Assembly (NCBI GenBank): GCA_026023565.1
Contig: JAPETS010000001.1
Coordinates: forward strand, 1,550,001-1,614,000
Direction: 5' to 3'
DNA: 64,000 nt
Origin: Cirrosporium novae-zelandiae
Taxonomy: Eukaryota
Shown here: positions 10,704 through 61,533 of the stretch, piece after piece
How positions within the stretch are numbered: the first letter of the stretch is position 1
How the letters are laid out: the number at the start of each line of letters is the position of its first letter
Program-made: the position numbers and the translations under genes
The notes under the pieces: model-generated
Databases searched by the model: none
Told to the model about the DNA's origin: nothing
What the model saw: only the letters and a program-made list of their open reading frames with translations

Positions 10704-11595
10704 ATTAACTCAGCCCATCTTGTTAGTTATCGACAAGAATACTTTCCCATGTACTTTTCACCGTCAAAAGTTTTGTTTCCTCAATTAAACGTGTAATAGT
10801 GTAAGAGAAGGAATGGAGCAAGGACCGTGCTCATTTTGAGAACATCCTCGAGTAGACTTGACTGGTTGTAAGGCGCATTTCCTTGTCCTAATTAGTAGTT
10901 CCTACGTCTCGCATTCCCGATCGCATCCGTCGCAGGTAAGTGACATCCGCTGACTAACCCTAAAATCCATCCTTAAAGTCCTACAACCTTTATATTATCC
11001 AATACTGTCCACTTATTTTCGAGCCTTGATAACATTGTAGAATCTCAAGATATCTATCTCACGCTCAAAGAGCATTGTATAGTCCAATCTAGGGAAAAGA
11101 GTTGGTTGAAAGCGTTCACGAACGGAGTTAGAAATTTCCGATTCTCCGACCTGGACCAAAGTCGGTCAAAAGTCGTCAAGAGATGACCACCAAGGTCCTC
11201 CTCTTCCATTCTTCTCCTACTCTCTCCATATAACATTTCGTTCAATAGCATCACAATAGCATCACAATAGCATCGTGGGGGGGAGAAAGAAACGATCAAT
11301 TCACACCATACTTTCCCTTCAAGTAATAGGTGAGGAAGCTATCTTAGGTGATATTGTATGTGGAGAGCTTCATCATCAACCAAACTGCCTCTTCAGCCTT
11401 GATCACTGACAGTCACAATCCAATTCCATCGTCTCACCGCCCAACAGATGGCCAAGCATTGTTAGCCAGGATTGCTGACGCTTGATATCAGATGTTAAAT
11501 ATCCCCTCGTCCTGCCTCTCGTAGTCACCCATTTGGTCTTTCACCTACAACCTTCAACCTGCTCTTCAATAACGTTCAAGGCTTCAGACGCAGCC

Positions 11596-13388
11596 ATGAA
11601 TTGTCCTTCTCGAAATGATGATACCATCCTTCATCCCACTTGGAACCAAAGCCCTCCACTGTTGACTTCAGACCTGACAACATGTCAAGATCTTAATGGT
11701 ATTGCTAACATCAGAGAGCAGAGAGAGACGGGGAGTAATGGAACAACGATCCCAATTTCGTCAATTAATGAGGTAGATACATCTCAACAGAAGTTACCTG
11801 AGGCTACGGCCCAACCATCTCCTAATAAGGGCCAGCCCCAAGCTACTATGGGAAACAAATGTTCTCCCTGGAAAGCTACATTGGCTCGCTATCCTCGCCA
11901 GATGTGTGAAATCATTGTAAAATATGCAAACTTTGTTGGGCCTGGATTTATGATCGCAGTCGCCTATATTGATCCAGGAAATTATGCTACAGATGTTTCA
12001 GCCGGTGCCCAAACGAAGTTCGCTTTGTTGTTTATAGTCTTGATGTCTAACCTATTTGCCATCTTCCTGCAGGCTCTTTGCATAAAGCTCGGGAGTGTTA
12101 CCGGGCTCAACCTTGCTGAGAATTGCAGAGCTCATCTACCCAGATGGCTGACAATCATTCTATACATATTTGCTGAGTCAGCTATTATTGCTACTGATAT
12201 TGCTGAGGTAAGATAGTAACCTAAAGATTGTCTTATAGTGACGGAGTTGACCCTGTTAGGTTATTGGATCCGCCATTGCTTTGAATGTCCTTCTGAACAT
12301 ACCTCTTGTAGCTGGCTGTGCGATCACCATGGTAGATGTCTTAATCACCCTTTTTTTCTACAACCCAAATGGATCGATGACGGGACTACGTGCCTTTGAA
12401 TTGTTTGTTATGATTTTAGTTATGGGTGTTGCCGTCTGCTTCTGCATCCAGCTGTCTCTCATTCGAGATACCCCTGTTGGGGAAGTGCTTAAAGGATATC
12501 TTCCTTCCGCTACTGTTATTGAATCAAATGGGTATGTGTCTGTCCATGATGATTTTCTAGAGTAATCCTAAGTCGTTCTATAGGTTATATCTGAGCTGTG
12601 GTATTCTTGGCGCAACTGTTATGCCGCATTCCATTTTTCTTGGCAGTGGGGTGGTTCAGTCGCGTCTCAAACAGTTCGATGTCGCCGAAGGGAATGTAGT
12701 GGCGTGTGCTCCTCTCGGTGGTGACGGAGAGGACGAAGGATATCGTCCATCTGTCTCTGCAATTCGAAGTTGTCTCAAATACTCTATTGTGGAGCTGACA
12801 TTACAATTGTTTACATTTGCCCTATTCATAAATAGTTCAATTCTCATCGTTGCGGGAGCCTCTTTATATGGGAACTCGGATGCTAGCGATGCAGACCTGT
12901 TTGGCATCCATGATCTCTTATCAAAGACGATTTCCCCAATTGCCGGAACTATTTTTGCGTTGGCCTTGCTTATATCTGGCCTCTCGGCTGGCATAATTTG
13001 TACTATTGCGGGCCAGATGGTCAGTGAAGGCTTTCTGAATTGGACTGTAGCTCCATGGCTTAGGCGGCTCATCACTCGGTCGATTAGCATTATCCCTAGC
13101 ATCATCATCGCGGCTGCCGTTGGGAAAGACGGCCTCAATGCCACCTTGACAGCATCGCAAGTCGTTTTGAGCGTAATTCTTCCATTTGTTACCGCTCCTC
13201 TTATCTACTTCACCTGTCGGAATAGATATATGACGGTCGCTATTGAAACACCAGGCGAAGGGCCGGAGGGCGACGACGTGAAGATGAGAAATAACTGGTT
13301 TATCGCAGCGCTAGCCATACTTATCTGGTTGGTCATTGTGATCATGAACGTTGCATTACTGGTCTTGGTTGGGCTTGGGAAAGCTTAA
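11596..13388 (+). CDS. Nramp-family divalent metal (Mn2+/Fe2+) transporter, Smf1/Smf2-like, 3 exons
   Basis: Motifs AYIDPGNYATD, GATVMPHS and AGQMVSEGF..W; multiple TM segments; introns ~12208-12259 and ~12532-12583; ATG in GCCATG context. Confidence 0.95.
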
Positions 13389-14060
13389 TGGATTACTGAT
13401 TCTACGCAAGTCAAAGTACCAGGGGTCCAAAAAAGCACGATTTTAATGGCTAGGCGATTCGTTTCTCCTTCGGTCAAGAAGAAAGAAGAGTCATTGTATA
13501 GACTATTCCCAGTTGGTGGATGGCATTTCAATGGTCGACTATTCGACCCGACCAGTGTCGAGTAGACGGATGTATATTATAATATAAAAGGCTCTAGGAC
13601 GGTAATAATTATAGATATTGCAGATATTGATAAGTCAGCAATAATACCTCATGGTATCTTCGAACCCCACAATCATTTCTATTTTCCGGTATAGTCTAAT
13701 TATTTGATACTAATATAACTAGGCGTCATATTTGAATTTACGTCACTTAGTCATTCTACCTCTATCTTTCCGAGCTCTTAACTAGAGTCTAAATGCAGAT
13801 AAAAATCTCCATGTTACAATTGTTCACTATCGTCCTCTAGCCGCACGAACAACATAAAAGGTTTTACTCCAATAATTTGAATGACTAGCAAAATTATTCT
13901 GTCAATGTTATTTATATTTTTGAGTAACTTATAGCTCTCGTTATTATCAAAGATTATAGAATTGTTTATATGTGAAAAGGATAGTCTTTTAGATGATAAT
14001 GTGCGGGGGTCTTTTCTCGCTCTCACCCTTCTCGGATTATAAGTAGCTACTTTTATGATG

Positions 14061-14924
14061 ATGAAAGCATGTGAAACCCTCAAACCTACCCTCAACCCTA
14101 TCATCATCCCAATCCGCATAAGAGCAATTAGTCTCTGCCGCTCCGACCTTGACACTCGACATGGATAATCCTCTAGATACAGGCCCTTATACTACGGCCT
14201 TTTCCACATGCTACACATTAGGCCACGGGATTGCTAGCTACATTGGGAGGTAGGAAATGGGACTGACGGTGTAGAGGAAAGGGAACCCGTGCTGGCGTAC
14301 CATTTATGGTGCTATCGTCACTATGGATTTTGCCTACGGGGGATTGAAAACGGTAGTTCTACCTAGAAGAGCAGCATCGTCTCCCCAAGGCAAAAGGTTG
14401 TGAGTCTCGACAGGGATACGGATCCCACGCCGATGGCCCTGCTCACGGATGCCGACGTCACGGGGTACCCTAGCGTTAAAATCTTTGTCGATCGATTGTA
14501 CTCGGAGTCCACTACCGTCATCATCGGCATCAGCGGGGCGGTGGCGTTCCCTGTCCCATTCACCAGGTTGTTGATCCGGGTGCCAAGGAGCTTATCTTAT
14601 CGGGCATGGATGCTATTATCGATCGTGTGGAACTGATCAGACGTTCTTGCGTGCGACACAAATTTCTAAATATAATGGGGATATCTATTTTATGGGTACG
14701 GAGAGCGGTACCGTGAGCATGGGGTGGGGGTTCCTGCCCTTCAGGGCGGGTTCATGATTAGTGTAGGAAGTACGAGGAGCGACTTGATGGAGGCTGTGCA
14801 GTTGGTTCGGATGGGGAAATTGAGGATCTGGAGGAAGGAGTTTGGGTTTTTGAGGATTAGAAAAGCGTGTAAGGCTCCCAGCAAGGGGAAGATTAGGGGA
14901 ACAGCAGCTATTTGTTTCGATTGA
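14061..14924 (+). pseudogene. Decayed zinc-dependent alcohol dehydrogenase (MDR superfamily, ADH-A/arabinose-DH-like type)
   Basis: Collinear motif remnants across shifting frames: MKA...IRIRAISLCRSDL (catalytic Cys, 14136); TLGHGIA (GHE motif, 14221); EVGNGTDGVEEREPVLAYHLWCYRHYGFCLRG (structural Zn lobe); DPTPMALLTDADVTGYPSVK...TVIIGISG (Rossmann start); GMDAIIDRV/TDQTF; GWGFLPF; GSTRSDLMEAVQLVRMGKL...GKIRG. Several stops and frameshifts. Confidence 0.85.
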
Positions 14925-15603
14925 GTAGCTAAGTACAGGGGAGGGAAGGATAATTACTGACCGGCGACTAAATTCTCATTGTATATAACTAATAGGATTT
15001 CCAACCACTCTCTCGCAATACGTCCTTCAATGGTGTTCTAGCTCTACGCATATCTGCTTCGCTACCGGAATTCTTTTATCTACCTAGAAGAGATAGGATA
15101 TTCAAATATGCCATGTTTTGCGAAGGTCGAATATTTTTGTTGGTAGTTGATGAAAAATCTGCCTCGTATTTTGAAGATTAGATCCGTTACTTAATAGGCG
15201 GAAATGAACGAAGAGAGATATGACTACTTTCTTCAAGGGAAACAAAGTTGAATCAAAACTTTCCAATACGAATTGGGCGGATTCTATCTTCCATGAAACT
15301 CTTCAACGTCTTAGGCGCCTGGGTGCTTCGACGCTTAGGTGAGAGGACAAAGTATTAAGAATCTGGTCCTTGCAAGTTGATGTGCCCCAAAGAAACAGAG
15401 AAGGAAAGTAGCATGAGTAGACATGCGGAACACGGAACAAGACGTAGAAGTTGAGACCGATCTCCGTGATAAGAGGCCGATTCCACGGAATCCTCCATAC
15501 GTCACCCAATCTTGACAGCCCCTCTTAATGCACCGATAAATACACCTCGATTGTGCATTGTGGAATAGCAAATTTGTTCTCAAGGCAATCTGAGGGCTCA
15601 ACG

Positions 15604-49498: not shown

Positions 49499-52400
49499 TG
49501 GGATGGTGATATTGGAAGGTCTGGAGTTGAGGTGAAGTGAGTTCAGGAAGGCTGTGACTTCCAAGGTGACCTTTAACTTGTGATAACAATTCTTGACCCT
49601 GGAAGCATGATTATCTCCACCGCTCTTGTCGTTATCAGGACCCGTTTGTCGTAGTATGAGTGAATGTGAGGGCGATCTCGGTAGAGAGCCGTGGCTGCAG
49701 TGGGTGGGATATATGAGCAAATGAGTGCGGGTGCCTGAGCTTTGAGCCTATTCTGAGCCTTGTTGACTGTGTGTTATTTGAACGTATGTTGGAGAATGGA
49801 ATTAATCTAGGCAGGTATGGTTATTGCAATGAAGGGGTTCCCCGAATAGTATTAGTGTTGAATCTATTCGAGTTTTCAAGTAGACTGAAGTAGACAAGAA
49901 GTGGAATGAAGGTACAATCTCAACCAGAAAGATGAGATTACGAGGGAAATCAGGAGAAGGAGAATGGAGCATTGAGAACTGAGGGGGAATGACGATAGAT
50001 TTCTAAAGGAAAGAAGAAAAGGAAAAGCTTGATGGAAGAATATGATCATCACAATCCTTGGTATGCGTATGTGTGTGTGTGTATTAGTTATTTCAGATTG
50101 CGGCGGAAAGGTCCTTCCTGACTACTCTTTTTCTCACCAGCAAAGAAAGTAACCAACGACCAGAGCCCAGAGACCGGAGACCACAGACAAGAGACCAGCA
50201 ACCTAGAGAGGGCGGCCAGGCAGGTGGTAGTAGGCAGTGTCAGTGTCAGTGTTCAGGTCAGGTATTGTTAAGTGTGTGTTAGGTCTGTTCGGTCCATGCA
50301 GTGGAAAAGGATGATTGATGATCGTGTGTCTTAGAAGCCCGATTGATGTCAGTCAGAGCACCGACTTTACAAGGACCTACAAAGGAGCTACAAGGACTGG
50401 GTAAGGTCTGAGGTAGCCTAAGCTCAACTCAGACTTACCAAACAACGAAAAGAAAACCCCCCCAGACGATTTTAGATTACCGCTATTAAACATTGGGTCC
50501 AAGAGACACGAAGAAATCAATACCCACCAATACCGCAGATACAGCCAGTACAGCCAATACAACTAATACCACCAACGATACAGCCAATACAGACGAGACA
50601 AGCAATGCAATGTCCAATGACACAGCCCAAAGTACCGAGAAGGAAGGATAAAATAAAATAAAATAAAATCAAAAACTACTACTCAGTCCCAGAAGACGCC
50701 ATGTGCCGCGGAATTTAAAAAAAAAAAGAAAAAGGGTACTTTCCGGTAGCCATCCCTCTTCCCCCCCCCCCCCCTAAATTGTCCATTTAACTAACTTGTA
50801 TGGGTCAAGCAAATTAATGCTTGAAGCCAGAGGCCAGAAGCCAGAAGCCAGAGGGTCAGTCTTACTGCGTACACTCTAAAACCATTACTTAGTGATAAAA
50901 CCAAAATTATTTTTGATTCGATTTGCTTTGGTTTTGCTATCAGGCACGGTAACAACGCCGGCGCCGGGTTAAGGCGTCGTCATTTGTTGTTGTTATATTT
51001 GTTATTGGAGCGACGGACAAGGGGGCAGAAGCCAAAGGAAAAGGGCAACGCCAAATACAGATACATACTTCTCTTGACCTTCCAAAGATATATTGGTAAA
51101 ATTAATAGATACCATATTTTAATCCTTCCTTCTTTGTAGTCTATGTCATTATACAATAATATGGGAAGTAAAAATAATGACTGATCCTCAAGTCCAGTCG
51201 GCCAAGCATTGGCATTGGCATTTGCCTCTCGCAATTTTAGGGACCATTGTCATATAGGCATCCATTATCCATTATCAAATCGATGGCGTATTGTTCAGCA
51301 TGTGGGGGCAAGCAGGGTGATTTTAACTTAACTCTGTTTTTCATGTGGTGGTAAAAGTAAGTGCAAGCACTTTGAAGCAGTCGAGAATAAGGTAGGTGAT
51401 ATCTAAGTGGTTAAGAAATTTGATTATTCAAAGTTGAAAGGATACTGAAAGCGAAATGGGGGGTGGGATGAAGGATGGGAAAAACGGGCGACTGACGACT
51501 TGACAAGTTTGAGAGTTTAGATGAAGGGCTTTTGTTACCTAGGTACCTTAGGTATAGTCAGAAAAGATCATTTCAAGTACCAGTAATGCCACTTACAGAG
51601 AAAGAAAATAAATGATGATGTCGGTCGCCATGGGTTATGGTACAAAGTGTGTCTCGTCCAGAGTACATAACTCAACTCACTCACTCACCCACACTTACAC
51701 ATACAAGTAGAAGCCTACATAATTAGGTCTAACAAGTCCAACAAGCCTAACAAGTCTGCTTGGTAAGTAGGCTTCTTAGGCTTGTTAGACCTGTTTAGAC
51801 TACGCATATCCCGGTTCGCCCAGGGCTCCTCACCTTCCATAATCGCCGCCCCAGCGGTAAGTGGTGGCCTATGGTTCTATAGAAGAATCATGGACATCGA
51901 TGGGATTTCGTGTAAAGCATTAATTAGCAAAAAAAGCCTGGCTGGATGTGAGAAAGTATCAATTCATCACTCAGCACTCAGCACCCAGCACCCAGCACTC
52001 TTATCCAGTGGTGGCAGTGGACCAGCAGAGGAGCAGGGTTTGGATATTTGGATGTCCATGTATCTATCCTATTGGTTGCCGAGCAAACTTTTACTCGTCT
52101 TCCAAACATGTTGCATCAGATTCTCTAATCTGTGGACCTTCTCAAACCAAACACATTTACAATTTATCTATCTGACCAGCCATCCTGATGCAGCGATAGC
52201 CGCACCGCGGTTGGCTGACGGAGAAACAATGCAAATGTGGAAGGCACCGAGAGTTGAGAGTCACAGGGCCGAAATCACCGGATACGCTGGATAGAAGAGA
52301 CTTCAGGAGTTTTTTTCTTTTTCTGCTCTTCTGTTTGGTTTTATGTTTTTTTGATATTATTGTTCAACATTATTTAGAATTTTTTCTTTTCTTGTCTTGC

Positions 52401-53100
52401 GTGGATGTTTTTCGTAGCCTGGCTACGATATGGTGATTCAAGACTAACTAGGTTTGGCCAACATGACGACGGGAAGCGACTTTCAGATTAATAACTTGTC
52501 AATGCCTTTTTAATGACTTTGACTCATTTAATAATAATAATAGTGCATGTATACATCTTCTATAGGAGTCTCGAACTACTAAGGTGGTAGTTGGACAAGG
52601 GATATGACCGAGGAAAGAATTGGAATAATTTACAATTACATGGCCACTCTGGGGCTATTGTAATTGTGTAAAATTACAGTGTTAGGAACATGGATGCAGA
52701 GAAGGATGATCCGAAACGGTCATTTGCTGCAGCACCCATGTTTCAATGATTGCTTGAGGTTTCCTGGGATTTACTACTACTGTTGTATTGCTACTTTCTT
52801 CCCCTTCTCCTTCTCCGACTCCCTTCTTCTTATTCACCTCCTAGGGCAGTTTAGTTCAGTTATCTGAGAGCAGCGCATTGCCGAACGGAACCTTAGAGTT
52901 TTGAAAGAGGGAAGCTAATAGGTTGGTTTGGAAAAAGTCTTACGGAAAGCGGAGAAGAGGAGAAAAGAAAAAGAAAAAGACAAAAAAGAGAATTATGACA
53001 TTATGAATTTTAACCTAAACTAATTAATTAGATATGAAAATCTCAAAAAGATTCCAAAAAGGTAGTTCATATTATTGACCTATCTCTGGATATTATTCCT

Positions 53101-53165
53101 CTGACCTCAGACCTCAGACCTCAGACCTCTGCTCTCAGACCTGACCTGACCTAACCTGACCCTAA
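53101..53165. repeat. Degenerate (CAGACCT)/(GACCT) tandem repeat
   Basis: ctgacctcagacctcagacctcagacctc...ctgacctgacctaacctgacc. Confidence 0.85.
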
Positions 53166-53715
53166 TTAGGGGGAACCAAATGGCCACCCAAAATAATCCA
53201 TAGGGCCAACCAAACAAAAGGCCCAACCCTTTGCAAAAAATCCTTATCCACAGCTTAGCTGGGTACACTTTTAGTTGTAATTATTATCCACATTTATCAT
53301 CAATTTCTTCATGTGTTGGCGTTTGACCTTCCAAGGCAAACAACCGGCTGTCTGCAAACCTGATCTGGACCAGAATTCAGAATTCAAGAAATGTCTATTT
53401 GGTTTTCTCTGGTTGGTTGGTTGACTTGGCTTTTCCGTCCTGCACATGTTGTACCCGAGGAGGGCGTCTGGCTCTCTAGGCAAGAATACTACGGTCGATG
53501 TGGGCAGGGGAACTATGTCCTATTCAAAATTGCAGTTAGGGAGGAAGTGTGGAACGGAATAACCCAAGGAAATCAAGGTGATTGGTGAGGGAATCCATCG
53601 ATCGCGTATTAATTGATGCAAGATTGGGGGACAGGATAGATTGAAGACGGATGGAAAAGCAGCGCCGAAGGAAGTTGCTGAAGACCCCGCTGAAGGCTGA
53701 AGCACCCGCCCAGCG

Positions 53716-53741
53716 CCCCCCCCCCCCCCCCCCCCCCCCCC
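53716..53741. repeat. Poly(C) tract, ~26 nt
   Basis: Directly visible. Confidence 0.9.
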
Positions 53742-56303
53742 ATTATCCCATAATCCCATGGGCGCATTATATATCCCACCCAACCTTCAGACCTTCCGGC
53801 ACCCGCGTTGGAGAAATGCATTATTATTTGCTTGTGGCGAAACTAATTAATTGGAATGGATAATTGAGCCCTAGTTTCATCATGGATTTAGCCTAGTAAA
53901 GTCAAGTAGCCCTTCAGTGGCCCTCCAGTGGCCCTCCAGTGGCTCCTGTAGCCCTCCTGTAGCCCTAGGAAGATGCGTGGACAACAGAACCACTCGTTAC
54001 CACCCTTTACCACTCTTTACCACTTCATTACCACACTAACTCCTTTTGTCTTAGTTGATGCCCAGCACCAGCATTGCCCTCTAACTTATCTCTGTTTTTC
54101 TTTCCATTCTCTACTAAACTTCAAGCAACTTATTCAGGTTACCAGGTTACCTAGTTACCTCAACAGTTTTTTTTTTCCCTTTCATTTTCCAGATGTGGTG
54201 ACCTACGAACAAGGCTGAAAGTGTATCCTTCAAGTTTCCACGGACCTCTCGGGTGTGACACTGTACGAGACAATAAATATCGCTGACCTACGAAAGTAGT
54301 CTCAAACGTCATGTATATTTCCACAAAAAAATAAAACGGTAATCATCTTTAAACCAACTATTATCTCCACACTCAGTCATGGTTATTATTCCAAGGCATC
54401 CAAGACTATATTTGACCTTGGCTGAGAAATATTCTAATTAGTCTAATAAACTCCCCCCAATTCAATTTACTCCTGGATTAATGTACTTTCTCTCATCCTT
54501 TCCGACCGTGCCGCTCGCCATGACCGGAATAAGTCGATAATTAGGGATAGGATCATTAACGAGATGCTCGCCTGCTAACTTATCTTCTCCGTGGCTCGTG
54601 TACCGCGCGCTCTCTCACAAAGCAGATGTAGCGAACTTTGCCTCGGATATCATTATACTTTTGGACGTTGATCCAGTCAGCGGCTCCTGTTGGTTTCTTT
54701 TACAGCAAATAATGCATGTCATCCACCTCATATGATGGTTTATCGTGCACACCTCGTACTGTGTATGCAGATCCAGCATGTCTCCCATGATTGGGTTCTC
54801 TAGTAGGATGGAAACTCTCTCTTACACCAGTGATAATTTCAAGGCGCTAGAAGGAGCTGAGCAGAGCCCCTTCTGAATTATTCCTGCAAACAGCGAGGTG
54901 TCATATCGGTCGCAATGATAACTCCAGATCTGTATCCGTCTGCAACCCGATCTTCCTGTCAGGTCAGGTCAGCTCTATGAGCCTGGAGTCCCTCAGCCCC
55001 TTCGAATTTCGGAGACTTGTGTGATGTGTCTGTAGCCTTGCATTCCGTGTCCCATATTCACCATTCACAAGCCGCCTAACTATTGCTTTCATCAGGTGTT
55101 ATGGCTACCTAGCAACATTTCATCACTACAACATCATCTGGTTTTGCAAATGGTATTTTAGCGGATATTCTACCAACGTAAATATCGAAATCCACCGGTA
55201 ATGAGTATATCCATCCGATAGGCTATGAGTCACTAGGAGAGGATGAGAAATAGGCGCCTCGACGTTGCCTCAACAATCATGTCGATATGCTAGATAGTAA
55301 TCAGTCTCGGATAGTTATGCGATGGATAAGCACCACTCGAAATAAAGTAATCCAAAGGTCGACCAGGGCGCCATGTACAAATGGCTAGCCCTATCATTAC
55401 TGGCCGCTCTATTCTTCTACGAATAATGCTTCATGTTTGCGATGCGGGATATCAGTTATTATGGCCTGGTTTGCTGGAGATGGAAATATGCAGCCTCCCT
55501 TCCGACAAAGGACGAACGCCACAACCTCAGCCAAGGGCGAACACCATGGTTGGATAGCCGGATTTGCTCCCATGCTCTCTTGATACCGAGGCCACCGCGC
55601 AAATGATAATTTGGGAGAAGTCCCTCAAAAAAAACTCAAGGAACGGAAGTATTGGCTCGATGATCACGAAAGAAGGATGCGAATGCCAGGAGCGAAGCAT
55701 GGGAGATGCAGAAATAATAACGGCACCATTGTGCTGCCAACATCAAAGTGGAACTCAATTACAATGTAGAAGTGAACCGAATGGGGGAGGGAAAGGACTA
55801 GGCATCTTTACACCATGTCTTCACAAGCCATCCTTAAACATGTTGGTTGGAAAAATGGAAAAACTTGAATATCAGATGGTGCAGAAGTTGATGGAGATAG
55901 GATAGTGGATAGTGGGCACACAAGGATAGGGGCACGGAAGCTATTTCAGACAGTTAACAAAAATCGGCAGGTATGGTCAGGACTCAGGAAGTAGTTTAGG
56001 GAGTTTGATGGAAAGTGGCAATTATTCACTAAGAGTAGAGGGTAGTTTTAGTAAAGCATTCGTATTGGAAGATTAGATATATGTGGCTGATAAAAAAAAG
56101 AGGAGTGTGAGGAGGTTGTCCCAAGGACCAAAGAAGGAGGTCGGACTCGACGACCCATGTAAGAGGGTGGGAGTATTTTTTTGGGGGGGGTAAAGTTGGA
56201 GTGGCATCGCTTCGGTCGTTTTGGAGTTTTGGGATGAAAACTTGTGGGTGGGAACTTTTGAAGCTAAACCGTCTGTGGTGTGACCTCACCAGGAGCGAGC
56301 GAA

Positions 56304-56329
56304 GAGAGAGGAGAGAGAGAGAGAGAGAG
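56304..56329. repeat. Imperfect (GA)n microsatellite
   Basis: Directly visible. Confidence 0.9.
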
Positions 56330-56817
56330 AAAAGGGATCAGTTGTTTGGGGCTTTTTGGGGGCTTTTGGTCTTGGGCCTTTTGGGCATTGAACTTTTGGG
56401 CTTTGGGCTTTGTCGGCTTGTCGGCTTACCCAAAAAAGGGCCCACCATCCAAGAAGGAAAATCCTCATTATCTCAACTAACTACTACTACTATCTAGGTA
56501 ATTAATCAAATCACCCCAAAATCCCTTCCTCGTGTTCTTTTTATTTTTACTTTTACTTTTATTTCTTGAGGATCCCGTCTCCTTAGCCCTGTATACTTAT
56601 CGGCATCTTTTTTTTATGTACAAGAATATGTTTAATTTTTTTTGGTTTTATTTTTTCCCTCTTCATCATCTTTTACTGCTCAGAAGAGACGTGTTCTCTG
56701 TGTGGGTCGGTCATTCATCATCTTTTGGAAAAAAAATCCTTGATTGAATGATGATCCGCTTCCAGACCAACCGAAACATGCATCCTACTGACTAGAGAGA
56801 GAGACTTTGCAAAGGTG

Positions 56818-57885
56818 ATGGTCCGTAGAATGAATGGTAAGTCACGTCAGCTGGTTCATCGACGCTTTCTTTTTTTAATAATAATATTATTATTTTCGTT
56901 GGGATGGGTTTGACCGACGAGCGAGAGGTATATTCCTAGGGGCCCATGATGATGGGTGTGAGACAGGCTGAGGACAAATTAATGGATCCTGATTGAGAGA
57001 AGAACCTTTTTACAAACCAACCCCCAGTTCAACCGTGGACTGTCTGTGGTTTGTTTCGGAAAATGGGAGCGACTATCAGCGGCTCAGAGTTCTCTTGAAT
57101 GTGAACCGAGTAATAGGCCCTGTTGAGGTAGGAAAAGTGCAGCAAATAAGACAATCAATATCATCTAGAACTGTCCAATCTTGCCTCGTTGCTGTTTTGT
57201 TGTACAGAAATAAATCATTGAATGCCGTGTATGGCTTCACAAACCCCCAGACTATCCATCATCCATCGAGGCTTGGGTAAGCTGCAGGCTTCCTTGACTG
57301 TCACTAACGAATAACCACCCCATCACATTGATAAATCCCATCTTTTGTTGGTATTTTACCATATCCAATTAATTTTGACCTTTTTTTCTCTCTCTTTCGG
57401 CTGAATTATGTATGCATTGAATATTCAAATCAATTTTCAGGATCAGCGTTGCCGTCCCCCGATCATGATTTTTTTTCTACCAGATATAATTGACTGTGAG
57501 ACATGAGAAATCCTTCTAGCGCCTGCCCGTTCACCCCTACTTAGCCGTCAGCATCCTTGTCAAATCGGATTTACCATTATTATCATTATTATTACTATTA
57601 TTATGGCCTTTGCCGATTATATGCAAGGCTGAAAGACTTCTACATTCTGGTCACTCCTTTTGCCCTGAGATCCGAGACTACCAGCCACCAACCAACGGGG
57701 GTGACATAGATTGGTGCTCGGTTTGGATTGAATCTAAAGTTGAAATTGTTTCCCTTGCCTACAGTCTTGAAGAATTTGTAGGCTCTTTCCGAACCAACAT
57801 ATACGAGACTCCTACTGAGGCTGCGGAACGAAACATGCAAGCGACACTCTACAAATTGGCTGCCCGCACCGGATTGCTGAAGTAG
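56818..57885 (+). CDS. Candidate small spliced orphan gene (~135 aa), function unknown
   Basis: Exons 56818-56836, 57003-57127 and 57628-57885 join in frame using donors GTAAGT and GTAGGA with AAG acceptors. The last exon reads as a globular protein. The model is tentative. Confidence 0.3.
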
Positions 57886-59925
57886 CAACACCTTCCAACA
57901 CCTTTTAAAGAAGCGGTCTAAACAATGTCTCCGAGACCTCTACTTGGAGAATCAGATTCCAATGAGCAGTAAATAGCAATCTATGACTATTTTTTAGACA
58001 TCGACAATCGACAACTTCATTTAATATCTTAATTATGATATGATTCAAAGTTACACATTAACTTTAGGACTACTAAATGATTTACCAGCTTCATCACGAA
58101 TTTGATCGAGCGTGTGTCTATGTGTCTATCAACGTGTTCTCGTGTTTTTCGATTGTTTGGAAACGTATCACAGAAGGCCAAGCAAGGAGTTTTTGACCGT
58201 TACTCTCACTCTCATATGCTAGTTGGACCATCTTTTCCTTTTAGCTTACCGACACCAACCTTGAAAATGAACACATTTCGAATTATTTTGATCGTACGAC
58301 TACGGAATAGTGACGGTGAAAGGTAGCTGCCGTTAATTGCCAAGTACATGTCAAGCTGGTATGCCTAGCTTATAGGGACTATAGAAATGATTTGGTCATT
58401 GGGCCGATTTAGTGGTTAGGCTTCTTGGAAACGCACTCCCACATGTTGGACAGATGTTGGACAGACGCTCAAGCACGGGTTTCAAGCGCAGTTCACCTTT
58501 TTCTCTTTTCGGTACATATGACGCCCTCTGAACAAGACGAAGTTCCCAACGAAGTACGATCGGTCAATTACGCTGCCTACCAATCAACCAACAGGAGGAG
58601 CCGATATTTTGACAGCCTTGCAGAAATTTTCTATATTGAATTCCTTTCGATGCATACTTGTTGAACTATGACGATAAACGCCCTTAAAATACTTCATGGC
58701 AGCTAAGCTTTTTGGATCTCCTTTATCCAATAACCACCCCATTCTGCATAGAATAGGGCTATTATAGGTTGCACTTGAAGGAATATTTCACCAAAGGACT
58801 TTCAACGAATAACCTTGAGCTGGTCTACAGACTGCTAGGTCAGTTACTCCCCTGAGTGAACCATGCTAGCGAGTGAGGCATTTAAGCAGTTGAAGAAGTA
58901 GTAACATATTTCCGATTTCTATTTCACTCTTTTTGTCCTAAGCCTCACTTATATTCTAGCTGTCATTGTATAAAAGACTTGTGGGTGCTTTACTACCTCT
59001 GTATGGACATTGGTAAATATATATCCTAGGGTAGTCTTCTGTTGGCAGAGGGTATACTTCGTTGATTCTGGTACCACCAATGCGCCTGTCTTCTCGAGAT
59101 TGCCATCAAGCATATCCCATAATAAGGAGTCGATCATAGGCTAAATTTATTGTCCAAACAGCAAGGATCCTAATATCGTTCATATATTCTTGAGCATTGT
59201 CCTTCAATATATATTATGTTCCAAAGCCATACAGTAATTGCCACCCCCTTTTGACTCGGCGGAGCACATATATCCAATCTCTATTATCTATCTCAAACTT
59301 GCTTGATCGTGTGCGTGTCGTGGGGTAGGAGCCTTGTTTCATTCATTAATTGCTCGAGTTGGTGGCTAGAAAAGGGGTTTGATTGCAATTGCCTCTTTTA
59401 TTTGCTCTTGTCCAAGGAGGTGAGCTATTTCTTTCCAAAATACCATGTCGAGTATCGATAGAACATGAGGGGTTTCGTCGGGGATTACCAACTTAATCAG
59501 TCCACTGTCCGAGCGGAATAAAAGCGCGATGTGGTCATTAGCGACTTATTACACGACAAAAGATCGTGATTGATGCGTAATTATGAGCTGGAGAAGAATT
59601 TGTTGGTGGGGGAACCAATTGAGTGGGGACCTTGGGATAGATGAAGAGCGAATAAGGCGAATATCAAAGTAGTTATTTCCAGAATTGCCAGGATCATTAG
59701 GCAAAAATTTCACCAAAAAGCTGGAGATGCATGCCTAGAAGGTTAGTAAACCCTTAGAAATTCTGCTCTGTTGATATTATTGTTTATGATGGACATTGGT
59801 GATTTGAGGGATCTTCGATGTCGGAAAAGGTAAACCGACCTTGATCAGGTCAGCAACCCCGCCATAGGAAAATGAATCATGAATTTCATAGGATCCTAGC
59901 GGCATCACGTGGACAGACACGCCAT

Positions 59926-59931
59926 ACGCGT
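59926..59931. promoter_or_regulatory. MCB element ACGCGT in the RNR2 promoter
   Basis: Perfect MluI box about 200 bp upstream of the ATG, with a second ACGCG core near 59952. Confidence 0.6.
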
Positions 59932-60128
59932 CGGTCTTTACCGTTCCTCGAACGCGCTATATGAGATCAAGGAAACCCTGATGAATGTCAACTTGCATTC
60001 TCTTCACCAACGCCATCTTCATCATTATTAGGCAGAATATCCCAAAGCCGTGTAGACCTCTACTCCAATTGCACCTTACTACAATTAAAAAACTGCCAAA
60101 GTTTCTGAAAAGGATTCAATCGATAACA

Positions 60129-61533
60129 ATGTCCAGCACAGACAAGGTGTGTTTTCCCCACTTCCGATTTCATCCACCCCTCTTCTTTTTCTAAAGGGAA
60201 AAAAAAAATTACAATTACCTTTGGGTTGATGATAATTCACAAGCAAATCCTATTCCCCATATTGAATCCCTTCTGCTTGCTGCCAGATCTTGAACAATGC
60301 TAATAATACCGATTTTTTCTAGACTACAGCTCAACTTGAGCAAATGAAGGTGAGTGATGACTCGCAGATAAAGTTCGAGTCAGGTGAAGGAACTCGAATC
60401 CAGTTGCAACCCGAAGAAATGGAGGAGGAAATTCTCAAAGAGAATCCCCATCGTTTTGTTATGTTCCCAATTCACTACAATGAGGTCAGTTCCTTATCGA
60501 TATTACCCCTCACCTTGTTTACGCGTTGCGCGTATAGTGGTTTCGCGTCACTAGACTAACTAGACTTAGATCTGGCAAATGTACAAAAAGCACGAGGCTT
60601 CCTTCTGGACATCAGAGGAAATTGATCTTTCCAAGGATCTTCGTGACTGGAACGAACGAATGAACAAAGATGAACGCTTCTTCATATCCCGTGTTCTTGC
60701 TTTCTTCGCTGCCTCGGATGGTATTGTCAACGAGAACCTAGTTCAGCGATTCTGCACCGAGGTTCAAATCCCAGAGGCACGATCCTTCTACGGCTTTCAG
60801 ATTATGATGGAGAACATTCATTCTGAAACATACTCCCTATTGATTGATACATATATTTCTGACCCCAAAGAGAAAACATTCCTTTTCGACGCTATCGATA
60901 CCAGTAAGCTTTGGGAACATGTTGGCCTCACAGACTGCCACTAATTCATCCATAGTTCCTTGCATTCGGAAGAAAGCTGAATGGGCCATTAAATGGATCC
61001 AAGACAAGGATGCTCTTTTCGCGCAACGTCTAGTTGCTTTCGCCACCATCGAGGGCGTTTTCTTCAGTGGGTCTTTTGCTTCTATTTTCTGGCTGAAGAA
61101 ACGTGGTCTTATGCCTGGTCTTACCTTCTCGAACGAGCTCATCTCTCGTGACGAAGGCCTTCACACAGACTTTGGGTGCCTTCTTTACCATCACCTTAAG
61201 AACAAACTTTCTGAAAAGTTTATTGCGGACATTGTCGCAGAGGCTGTTGTGATTGAAAAGGAGTACCTCACCGAAGCTCTACCCGTTTCATTGATTGGTA
61301 TGAATGCTAAGCTGATGCAACAATACATTGAATTTGTTGCCGACAGGCTTCTCCTGTCACTGGGCAACCCTAAACTCTACAATGCATCAAACCCATTCGA
61401 TTTCATGGAAGTTATTTCTCTTTCAGGAAAGACCAACTTCTTTGAGAAGCGTGTGGGTGACTACCAGAAATCTGGTGTCATGGCTGTTTCGACTGACGAG
61501 GAGACGGGCATTTCGTTTAACGAGGATTTTTAA
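60129..61533 (+). CDS. RNR2: Ribonucleotide reductase small (R2) subunit, 4 exons
   Basis: [33 protein letters not shown] (Fe ligands and radical Tyr); [32 protein letters not shown]-terminal FNEDF. Introns ~60147-60322, ~60485-60569 and ~60905-60955. Confidence 0.97.

Follow-up and report, generated by a model that had tools for sequence, protein, structure and literature searches.

The nearest solved structure, both for the decayed gene described here and for a profile of its fungal relatives, is that of Rhodococcus ruber ADH-A (PDB 2xaa/3jv7), an alcohol dehydrogenase (ADH) which, according to the PDB title, acts on secondary alcohols. Related cases of gene transfer have been described: one study concerns intronless metabolic genes which passed from bacteria into Pezizomycotina and were later lost from most species (PMC4320630), another reports a zinc MDR ADH from Sphingomonadales in Phytophthora (PMC5023847), and a third gives an ADH transfer into Chaetothyriales as 'HGT 3' (PMC11898892). 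Our literature search, which covered few subscription papers, found no description of the fungal-sphingomonad ADH clade discussed below. The DNA analyzed here (the window, a stretch of 64,000 nucleotides) comes from Cirrosporium novae-zelandiae, whose class, Xylobotryomycetes, is regarded as an isolated lineage of Leotiomyceta (PMC6712537).

On the forward strand of the window, positions 14061-14924 hold the pseudogene of a zinc MDR alcohol dehydrogenase, disrupted by five frameshifts (near 14155, 14247, 14573, 14629, and 14736), one stop codon, and four deletions. Its parts are given below, with positions referring to a family profile made from 59 intact relatives.

14061..14924, + strand: the entire ADH pseudogene, beginning at the remnant start M-K-A-C (14061) and closing with the original TGA stop (14922-14924)
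14061..14081, + strand: remnant N-terminus, with about 12 codons absent between MKAC and the KPT motif
14082..14153, + strand: segment 1, frame 3, profile 20-43, with a +1 frameshift at its end
14155..14247, + strand: segment 2, frame 1, profile 44-73, with a -1 frameshift at its end
14247..14573, + strand: segment 3, frame 3, profile 74-198
14573..14629, + strand: segment 4, frame 2, profile 199-251, from which stretches of 19 and 15 codons have been deleted
14629..14736, + strand: segment 5, frame 1, profile 252-287, ending in GWG, with a -1 frameshift on each side
14736..14924, + strand: segment 6, frame 3, profile 288-349, with the C-terminus GSTRSDL...GKIRG...FD-stop

The initial annotation had read a zinc MDR dehydrogenase across the frameshifts, and all the motifs it listed were recovered on the forward strand and in order, namely CRSDL in frame 3, LGHG in frame 1, EVGNGTDGVE, ALLTDADVTGY.SVK, and IIGISG in frame 3, GMDAIIDRV in frame 2, GTDQT and GWGFLPF in frame 1, and GSTRSDLMEAVQLVRMGKL and GKIRG, both in frame 3. 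The frameshift-aware alignment covered 14082-14921 against positions 20-349 of the 349 in the profile, with 128 of 276 codons identical to the consensus, and the relic was colinear with the family, keeping the order of a GroES-like catalytic domain followed by a Rossmann domain. The N-terminal gap (MKACETLKPT in the relic in comparison to MKAYRLVEWGQPGEYVDVPKPT in the consensus) was judged by eye, outside the computed alignment. Such an alignment had been proposed together with the annotation, and it gave a significant MDR match: the score against the best single homolog was 339, in comparison to a mean of 34 and a maximum of 48 for 200 dinucleotide shuffles and 29 for the reverse strand. The family profile scored 378 at the relic and at most 48 anywhere else in the window. 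Intact relatives carry PF08240 and PF00107; Pfam and NCBIfam searches of the single-frame read-through and its open pieces returned no family, and none of the four intact clade members tried reached the NCBIfam cut-off. A word-indexed protein search with the read-through gave 450 candidates, none of them significant, and a pattern scan of GTDB genomes gave 38 candidates, none of them confirmed. An intact gene exceeds the relic by about 186 nt in length, so the relic has no room for introns, as had been claimed, and a pattern scan found no canonical intron candidate in it. From the aligned sequence we consider it confirmed that the ancestor of the relic was a zinc-dependent MDR alcohol dehydrogenase.

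Segment 1 retains the catalytic-zinc residue Cys38 as well as Ser40, segment 2 retains the zinc ligand His66 next to a GHE motif changed to GHG, and segment 3 retains the zinc ligand Asp157, so that the catalytic-zinc ligand set is intact. Segment 3 also contains a TAG stop at 14364 and a 17-codon deletion near 14376, and its loop keeps one of the four structural-zinc cysteines, the register of the first two being ambiguous. The GxGxxG motif in this segment is degraded to G-I-S-G-A-V, with Gly185 replaced by Ser and Gly188 by Val, and the first deletion in segment 4 takes out Asp207, the acidic residue of the NAD-binding strand. Altogether the four deletions, of about 36-57 nt each, removed about 63 codons. 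Among the 121 columns which are at least 90% conserved in the 59 clade members, 105 align to the relic, with 64 kept and 41 altered, in comparison to 97% kept on average in intact members. Judged from these lesions, the relic is a dead, single-copy (unitary) pseudogene, without present function and unable to encode an enzyme. The pseudogenization proposed in the initial annotation is thus borne out by the frameshifts, the stop, and the destroyed NAD-binding residues, and its account of decay by frameshifts is extended by the four internal deletions, which it had missed.

Of 280 constrained sites at first or second positions of codons, 76 were changed (about 27%), 56 by transition, and no excess was found among these changes in CpA/TpG (p=0.17) or CpG (p=0.38) contexts. 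The divergence of the relic looks like ordinary neutral decay. The aligned path carries one stop in comparison to the four to five expected by neutral simulation (P = 0.03-0.08). Some of the divergence may therefore have accumulated before inactivation; alternatively, the aligner may steer around stops. After decay the GC3 of the relic is 0.60, in comparison to a host mean of 0.51 +/- 0.09, and 7 of 40 host frames, some probably antisense, have a GC3 as high. Simulated decay ended at a GC3 of 0.47-0.50 for fungal homologs (n=2) and 0.57-0.58 for sphingomonad homologs. Since a GC-rich fungal member (L060, 0.74) and GC-rich host frames (up to 0.64-0.70) exist, the high GC3 of the relic is a hint only. 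Other modes of change were tried as well. Inactivation by RIP was rejected on a composite RIP index of -0.41, a GC content of 51%, the lack of a context excess, and the single copy. A strand bias towards G-to-A change was seen in the raw counts (16 G>A vs 4 C>T) and was gone after correction for opportunity (23/103 vs 9/41), and CpG decay was rejected, its contexts not being enriched.

The genes surrounding the relic are ordinary, intron-bearing fungal genes. The initial annotation had placed the relic in an Nramp-TUL1 interval, and both of these genes are present, while a dioxygenase gene lying between the relic and TUL1 had been missed.

11479..13388, + strand: Nramp transporter gene (left neighbor), several exons, no break seen, PF01566
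15604..16875, + strand: 2OG-Fe(II) dioxygenase gene (right neighbor), several exons, DIOX_N PF14226 and 2OG-FeII_Oxy PF03171
17420..20168, + strand: TUL1/Dsc1-type RING E3 ligase gene (next neighbor)

One more short exon of the dioxygenase gene probably follows 16875. The TUL1 protein, which served to place the host, is 99% identical to one labelled Cirrosporium novae-zelandiae, and its next matches are less than 60% identical. The relic DNA is single copy in the genome, and no intact clade member was found elsewhere in it, the best other match being 36% identical. The best frames of 38 own-genome MDR loci (the best 30 of 59 and the best 8 of 35 matches, with overlaps) scored at most 68 against the relic. 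Duplication of a host ADH was rejected on the single-copy DNA and on these low identities and scores. A fungal Adh1-type origin was likewise rejected: an own-genome frame with APMLCAG (L029) scored 40, which is at chance level. The view that the gene is of an ADH-A-like zinc MDR kind and unlike yeast Adh1 agrees with this score and with the LLTDAD of the relic, which is an LTDAG-type motif with Asp as third zinc ligand and not LCAG. Several further observations were made in the same genome. Some own-genome MDR frames (L015/L040 on G000:C109, L023, and L027) have a GC3 of 0.66-0.70, in comparison to about 0.45 for typical genes; they may have been acquired as well or may just be strongly expressed. 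Contigs C35 and C47 of G000 gave identical matches at identical coordinates (L020/L021, L036/L037), which suggests a duplicated contig in the assembly. The 11 kb at 49750-60840 of the window contain a single open frame of at least 150 aa and could conceal more relics or genes of many exons; a search of these 11 kb with the ADH profile was negative.

The living relatives of the relic are zinc- and NAD-dependent MDR ADHs of about 350 aa, of an ADH-A-like group, scattered through Pezizomycotina. An unfiltered search of 1.8 billion representative proteins gave 14 matches, with P0002 at the top. Among the best 120 of 853 matches, the named eukaryotes in the P0002 clade were all Pezizomycotina (Sporothrix, Ilyonectria, Clonostachys, Fusarium, Daldinia, Hypoxylon, Aspergillus, Penicillium, Aureobasidium, and Teratosphaeria), followed by sphingomonad proteins at about 49-54% identity and by actinobacterial and other bacterial proteins at 40-46%. 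Xylariales also occur among the fungal members, whose genera span Sordariomycetes, Eurotiomycetes, and Dothideomycetes; most rows called fungal were assigned as such by tree position. When 162 proteins were ranked against the relic by frameshift-aware alignment, the best fungal and sphingomonad proteins scored about 300-339 (best fungal match 339, at 41% identity; Sphingomonas profundi P0107, 333) in comparison to 145-168 for ADH-A types. Fungal and sphingomonad clade members are 46-63% identical, with a mean of 55%. Searching GTDB with a bacterial alignment gave 14 loci, nine of them full length at 62-77% identity; eight of the nine carry sphingomonad titles, and one is an unclassified Pseudomonadota. 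Both complete fungal loci (L056 and L059) are intronless, and the partial locus L060 is open over its 133 codons. Since the intronless state is a trait of the whole fungal clade, the missing introns of the relic are silent on the date of transfer. As to ADH-A, all 12 PDB matches of the read-through were ADH-A, its variants, or close relatives (E about 1e-8), which accounts for the first impression of that enzyme. The fungal clade profile also found ADH-A first (E about 1e-89), so the PDB outcome shows only which member of the group was crystallized, and LTDAG, being common to the whole fungal-sphingomonad clade, is not diagnostic of ADH-A. Two side observations concern records in the fungal clade and beyond. 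P0007, a protein of 149 aa from another organism, joins the clade N-terminus directly to the C-terminal third; it could represent another copy from this ADH family that has decayed or suffered a deletion. Clade records from Penicillium and Fusarium are annotated as 'alcohol dehydrogenase I-ADH1' despite having LTDAG and grouping with bacterial ADH-A-like enzymes, and the 'ADH1' label on fungal members, an automatic one, is probably wrong.

In the tree without the relic, 22 fungal rows were split from 32 bacterial rows with an SH-aLRT support of 99.9, and the Sphingobium protein L050 branched outside the fungi and the core sphingomonads (90-92). The fungal clade thus appears, in these fast trees, to be nested among sphingomonad bacterial enzymes, in keeping with the bacterial ancestry originally proposed. 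Of the broad, vertically inherited, intron-containing fungal clade which the annotation had named as its contrary, the breadth was found, in three classes, together with intronless loci and a position inside bacteria. With the relic added, it fell with the fungal rows on one side of a branch with support of 89 (86 rows) and 88 (55 rows). All supports are SH-aLRT values from fast searches, and a separate placement test was run. With a very long branch (1.55) and a failed composition test, the relic has an unsure position, and in the 86-row tree it is in no starred clade.

We give a probability of roughly 0.77 to an old transfer from a bacterium to a fungus, which founded a sphingomonad-related clade whose copy was later lost in the Cirrosporium lineage. 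As the trees suggest, a sphingomonad-related bacterial ADH would have entered a filamentous ascomycete long ago, and it would have stayed intronless and been kept patchily, through vertical descent with many losses, fungus-to-fungus transfer, or both. The Cirrosporium lineage would have carried a perhaps early-branching copy at the position seen today between the Nramp and dioxygenase genes, and selection would then have lapsed, leaving the observed transition-rich point mutations, small indels, and four deletions. The annotation had left open a direct transfer or one by way of a fungal clade of transferred origin, and placement over 105 branches favors the second (0.53 inside the fungal clade and 0.42 on its stem, 0.95 together, in comparison to 0.05 for sphingomonads and less than 0.001 for others); a place for the relic on or inside the Pezizomycotina clade of sphingomonad affinity is accordingly the favored one. 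An independent, direct sphingomonad transfer into the Xylobotryomycetes lineage, with the gene dying before its codon use had fitted the host, is unlikely, although the single best placement, the stem, is sister to all other fungal members, and several sphingomonad placements pass the AU test (p up to 0.53, from 2000 replicates under LG+G4 without mixture on a fast backbone). The GC3 of 0.60 also fits a decayed sphingomonad-like gene better than it fits the two simulated fungal genes, but the GC-rich fungal member and host frames noted above weaken this point. At the 24 diagnostic columns still present, 13 are nearer the fungal state, 6 the sphingomonad state, and 5 are tied, and early-branching fungal members share several of the residues that look sphingomonad-like. 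No relics of 12 neighbor proteins of homologous loci were found in either flank (scores 24-42, chance level). If an independent transfer were nevertheless true, the same terpenoid/aromatic-alcohol dehydrogenase would have crossed from sphingomonads to fungi at least twice, and the relic would record one of these crossings in the course of failing.

The remaining explanations fare worse. That no transfer between kingdoms took place, an old eukaryotic MDR family having been kept in some ascomycetes or the sphingomonads having acquired the gene from fungi, seems improbable to us. The clade does cover three classes, and PMC11898892 argues that differential loss is often the better explanation for broad but patchy distributions. 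Against it, the named eukaryotes among the best 120 of 853 matches are all Pezizomycotina, bacterial sequences surround the clade with L050 outside it, its mean identity to sphingomonad proteins is 55%, and the two complete fungal loci are intronless. It is very improbable that the breaks are sequencing or assembly errors, that a protein is still made through splicing or recoding, or that the stretch is a contamination. Fewer stops were seen than neutral decay predicts, and the assembly may have been built from the only run that contains the stretch (X1), so that a match in this run checks the assembly and not a second individual. No RNA run was listed as containing the stretch, which is silent on its expression. 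A 22.7-kb contig of X1, assembled separately at a depth of 365, matches 13400-15600 exactly and with 0 gaps, neighboring open frames are long (593, 1049, and 1676 aa), and the flanks are fungal; the altered conserved residues, the lost codons including those for NAD-binding residues, and the lack of a canonical intron also stand against it. It is hardly credible that an actinobacterium, the donor suggested in the initial annotation, passed on a Rhodococcus-type ADH-A gene directly. The PDB matches point to ADH-A, and among plasmids a Rhodococcus ADH matches best (27%), but that structural match reflects which group member was crystallized, ADH-A types score half of what fungal and sphingomonad proteins do, and every placement in the ADH-A clade was rejected (delta lnL 43-56, AU p <=0.014), with P0014, P0016, and the Rhodococcus protein of L032 standing in for ADH-A itself, which is no row of the tree. 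A special closeness to Rhodococcus ADH-A is not supported either.

Under the preferred reading of an old transfer followed by loss, the former role of the gene can be sketched by analogy with living members. In view of the ADH-A likeness and the gene neighbors of clade members, the enzyme most likely oxidized or reduced a hydrophobic alcohol, probably secondary or terpenoid/aromatic, in a catabolic or detoxifying setting. Among the gene neighbors at the eight sphingomonad loci scanned, P450s were seen in three, TonB receptors in three, PQQ dehydrogenases in two, and a linalool dehydratase/isomerase in one; fungal members adjoin SnoaL, FAH, SDR, or TRI12-type MFS genes or a housekeeping gene, L059 lying beside RINT1/TIP20. 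In this neighbor survey 54 of 120 picked frames were scanned, and some picks were antisense. As a separate observation, the fungal locus L056 has SnoaL_4 and FAH genes adjacent (L056:4404-4883 and L056:942-1917), and the same families stand beside sphingomonad members (L050:954-1589 and L042:5973-6914); a co-transfer of SnoaL_4/FAH with the ADH is possible.

Gene callers miss relics of this kind, so that presence/absence maps count such a genome as one in which the gene never existed. Here the relic shows that the gene was once present and has been lost, and it is direct evidence of loss behind the patchy bacterial-type genes of Pezizomycotina, a matter under debate (PMC11898892). The clade members are related to the biocatalyst ADH-A and easy to assay. 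The type of event is already known, and one decayed gene alters no general picture.

As to the transfers described earlier, the gene families differ from that of the relic as far as PMC4320630 shows, its 11 Colletotrichum events including no named MDR ADH, and the Phytophthora ADH belongs to a different family, rich in Firmicutes, animal, and plant homologs (PMC5023847). With the fungal Adh1-type fermentative ADH the relic shares the MDR fold and zinc ligands only. It is like ADH-A in its Cys/His/Asp catalytic-zinc set and LTDAG-type motif, and in the four-Cys structural-zinc loop of its intact relatives, and unlike it in lying in a separate clade, the ADH-A branch being rejected. The NAD(P)-dependent ADHs of sphingomonads (Sphingomonas profundi P0107, Tsuneonella P0084, and Sphingobium L042/L050) score up to 334 and form the sister or parent group of the fungal clade; unlike the relic, they are found in catabolic gene clusters of bacteria, together with TonB receptors and P450s. 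The Pezizomycotina ADHs (Fusarium fujikuroi CCT68082 and Penicillium KAJ5793262, 'probable alcohol dehydrogenase I-ADH1') give the best scores and have the same intronless layout as the relic, with CRSDLD, YxLGHE, LTDAGVT, and GSTR as common motifs; unlike these members, the relic is broken and without a close sampled relative, and it branches at or near the base of their clade.
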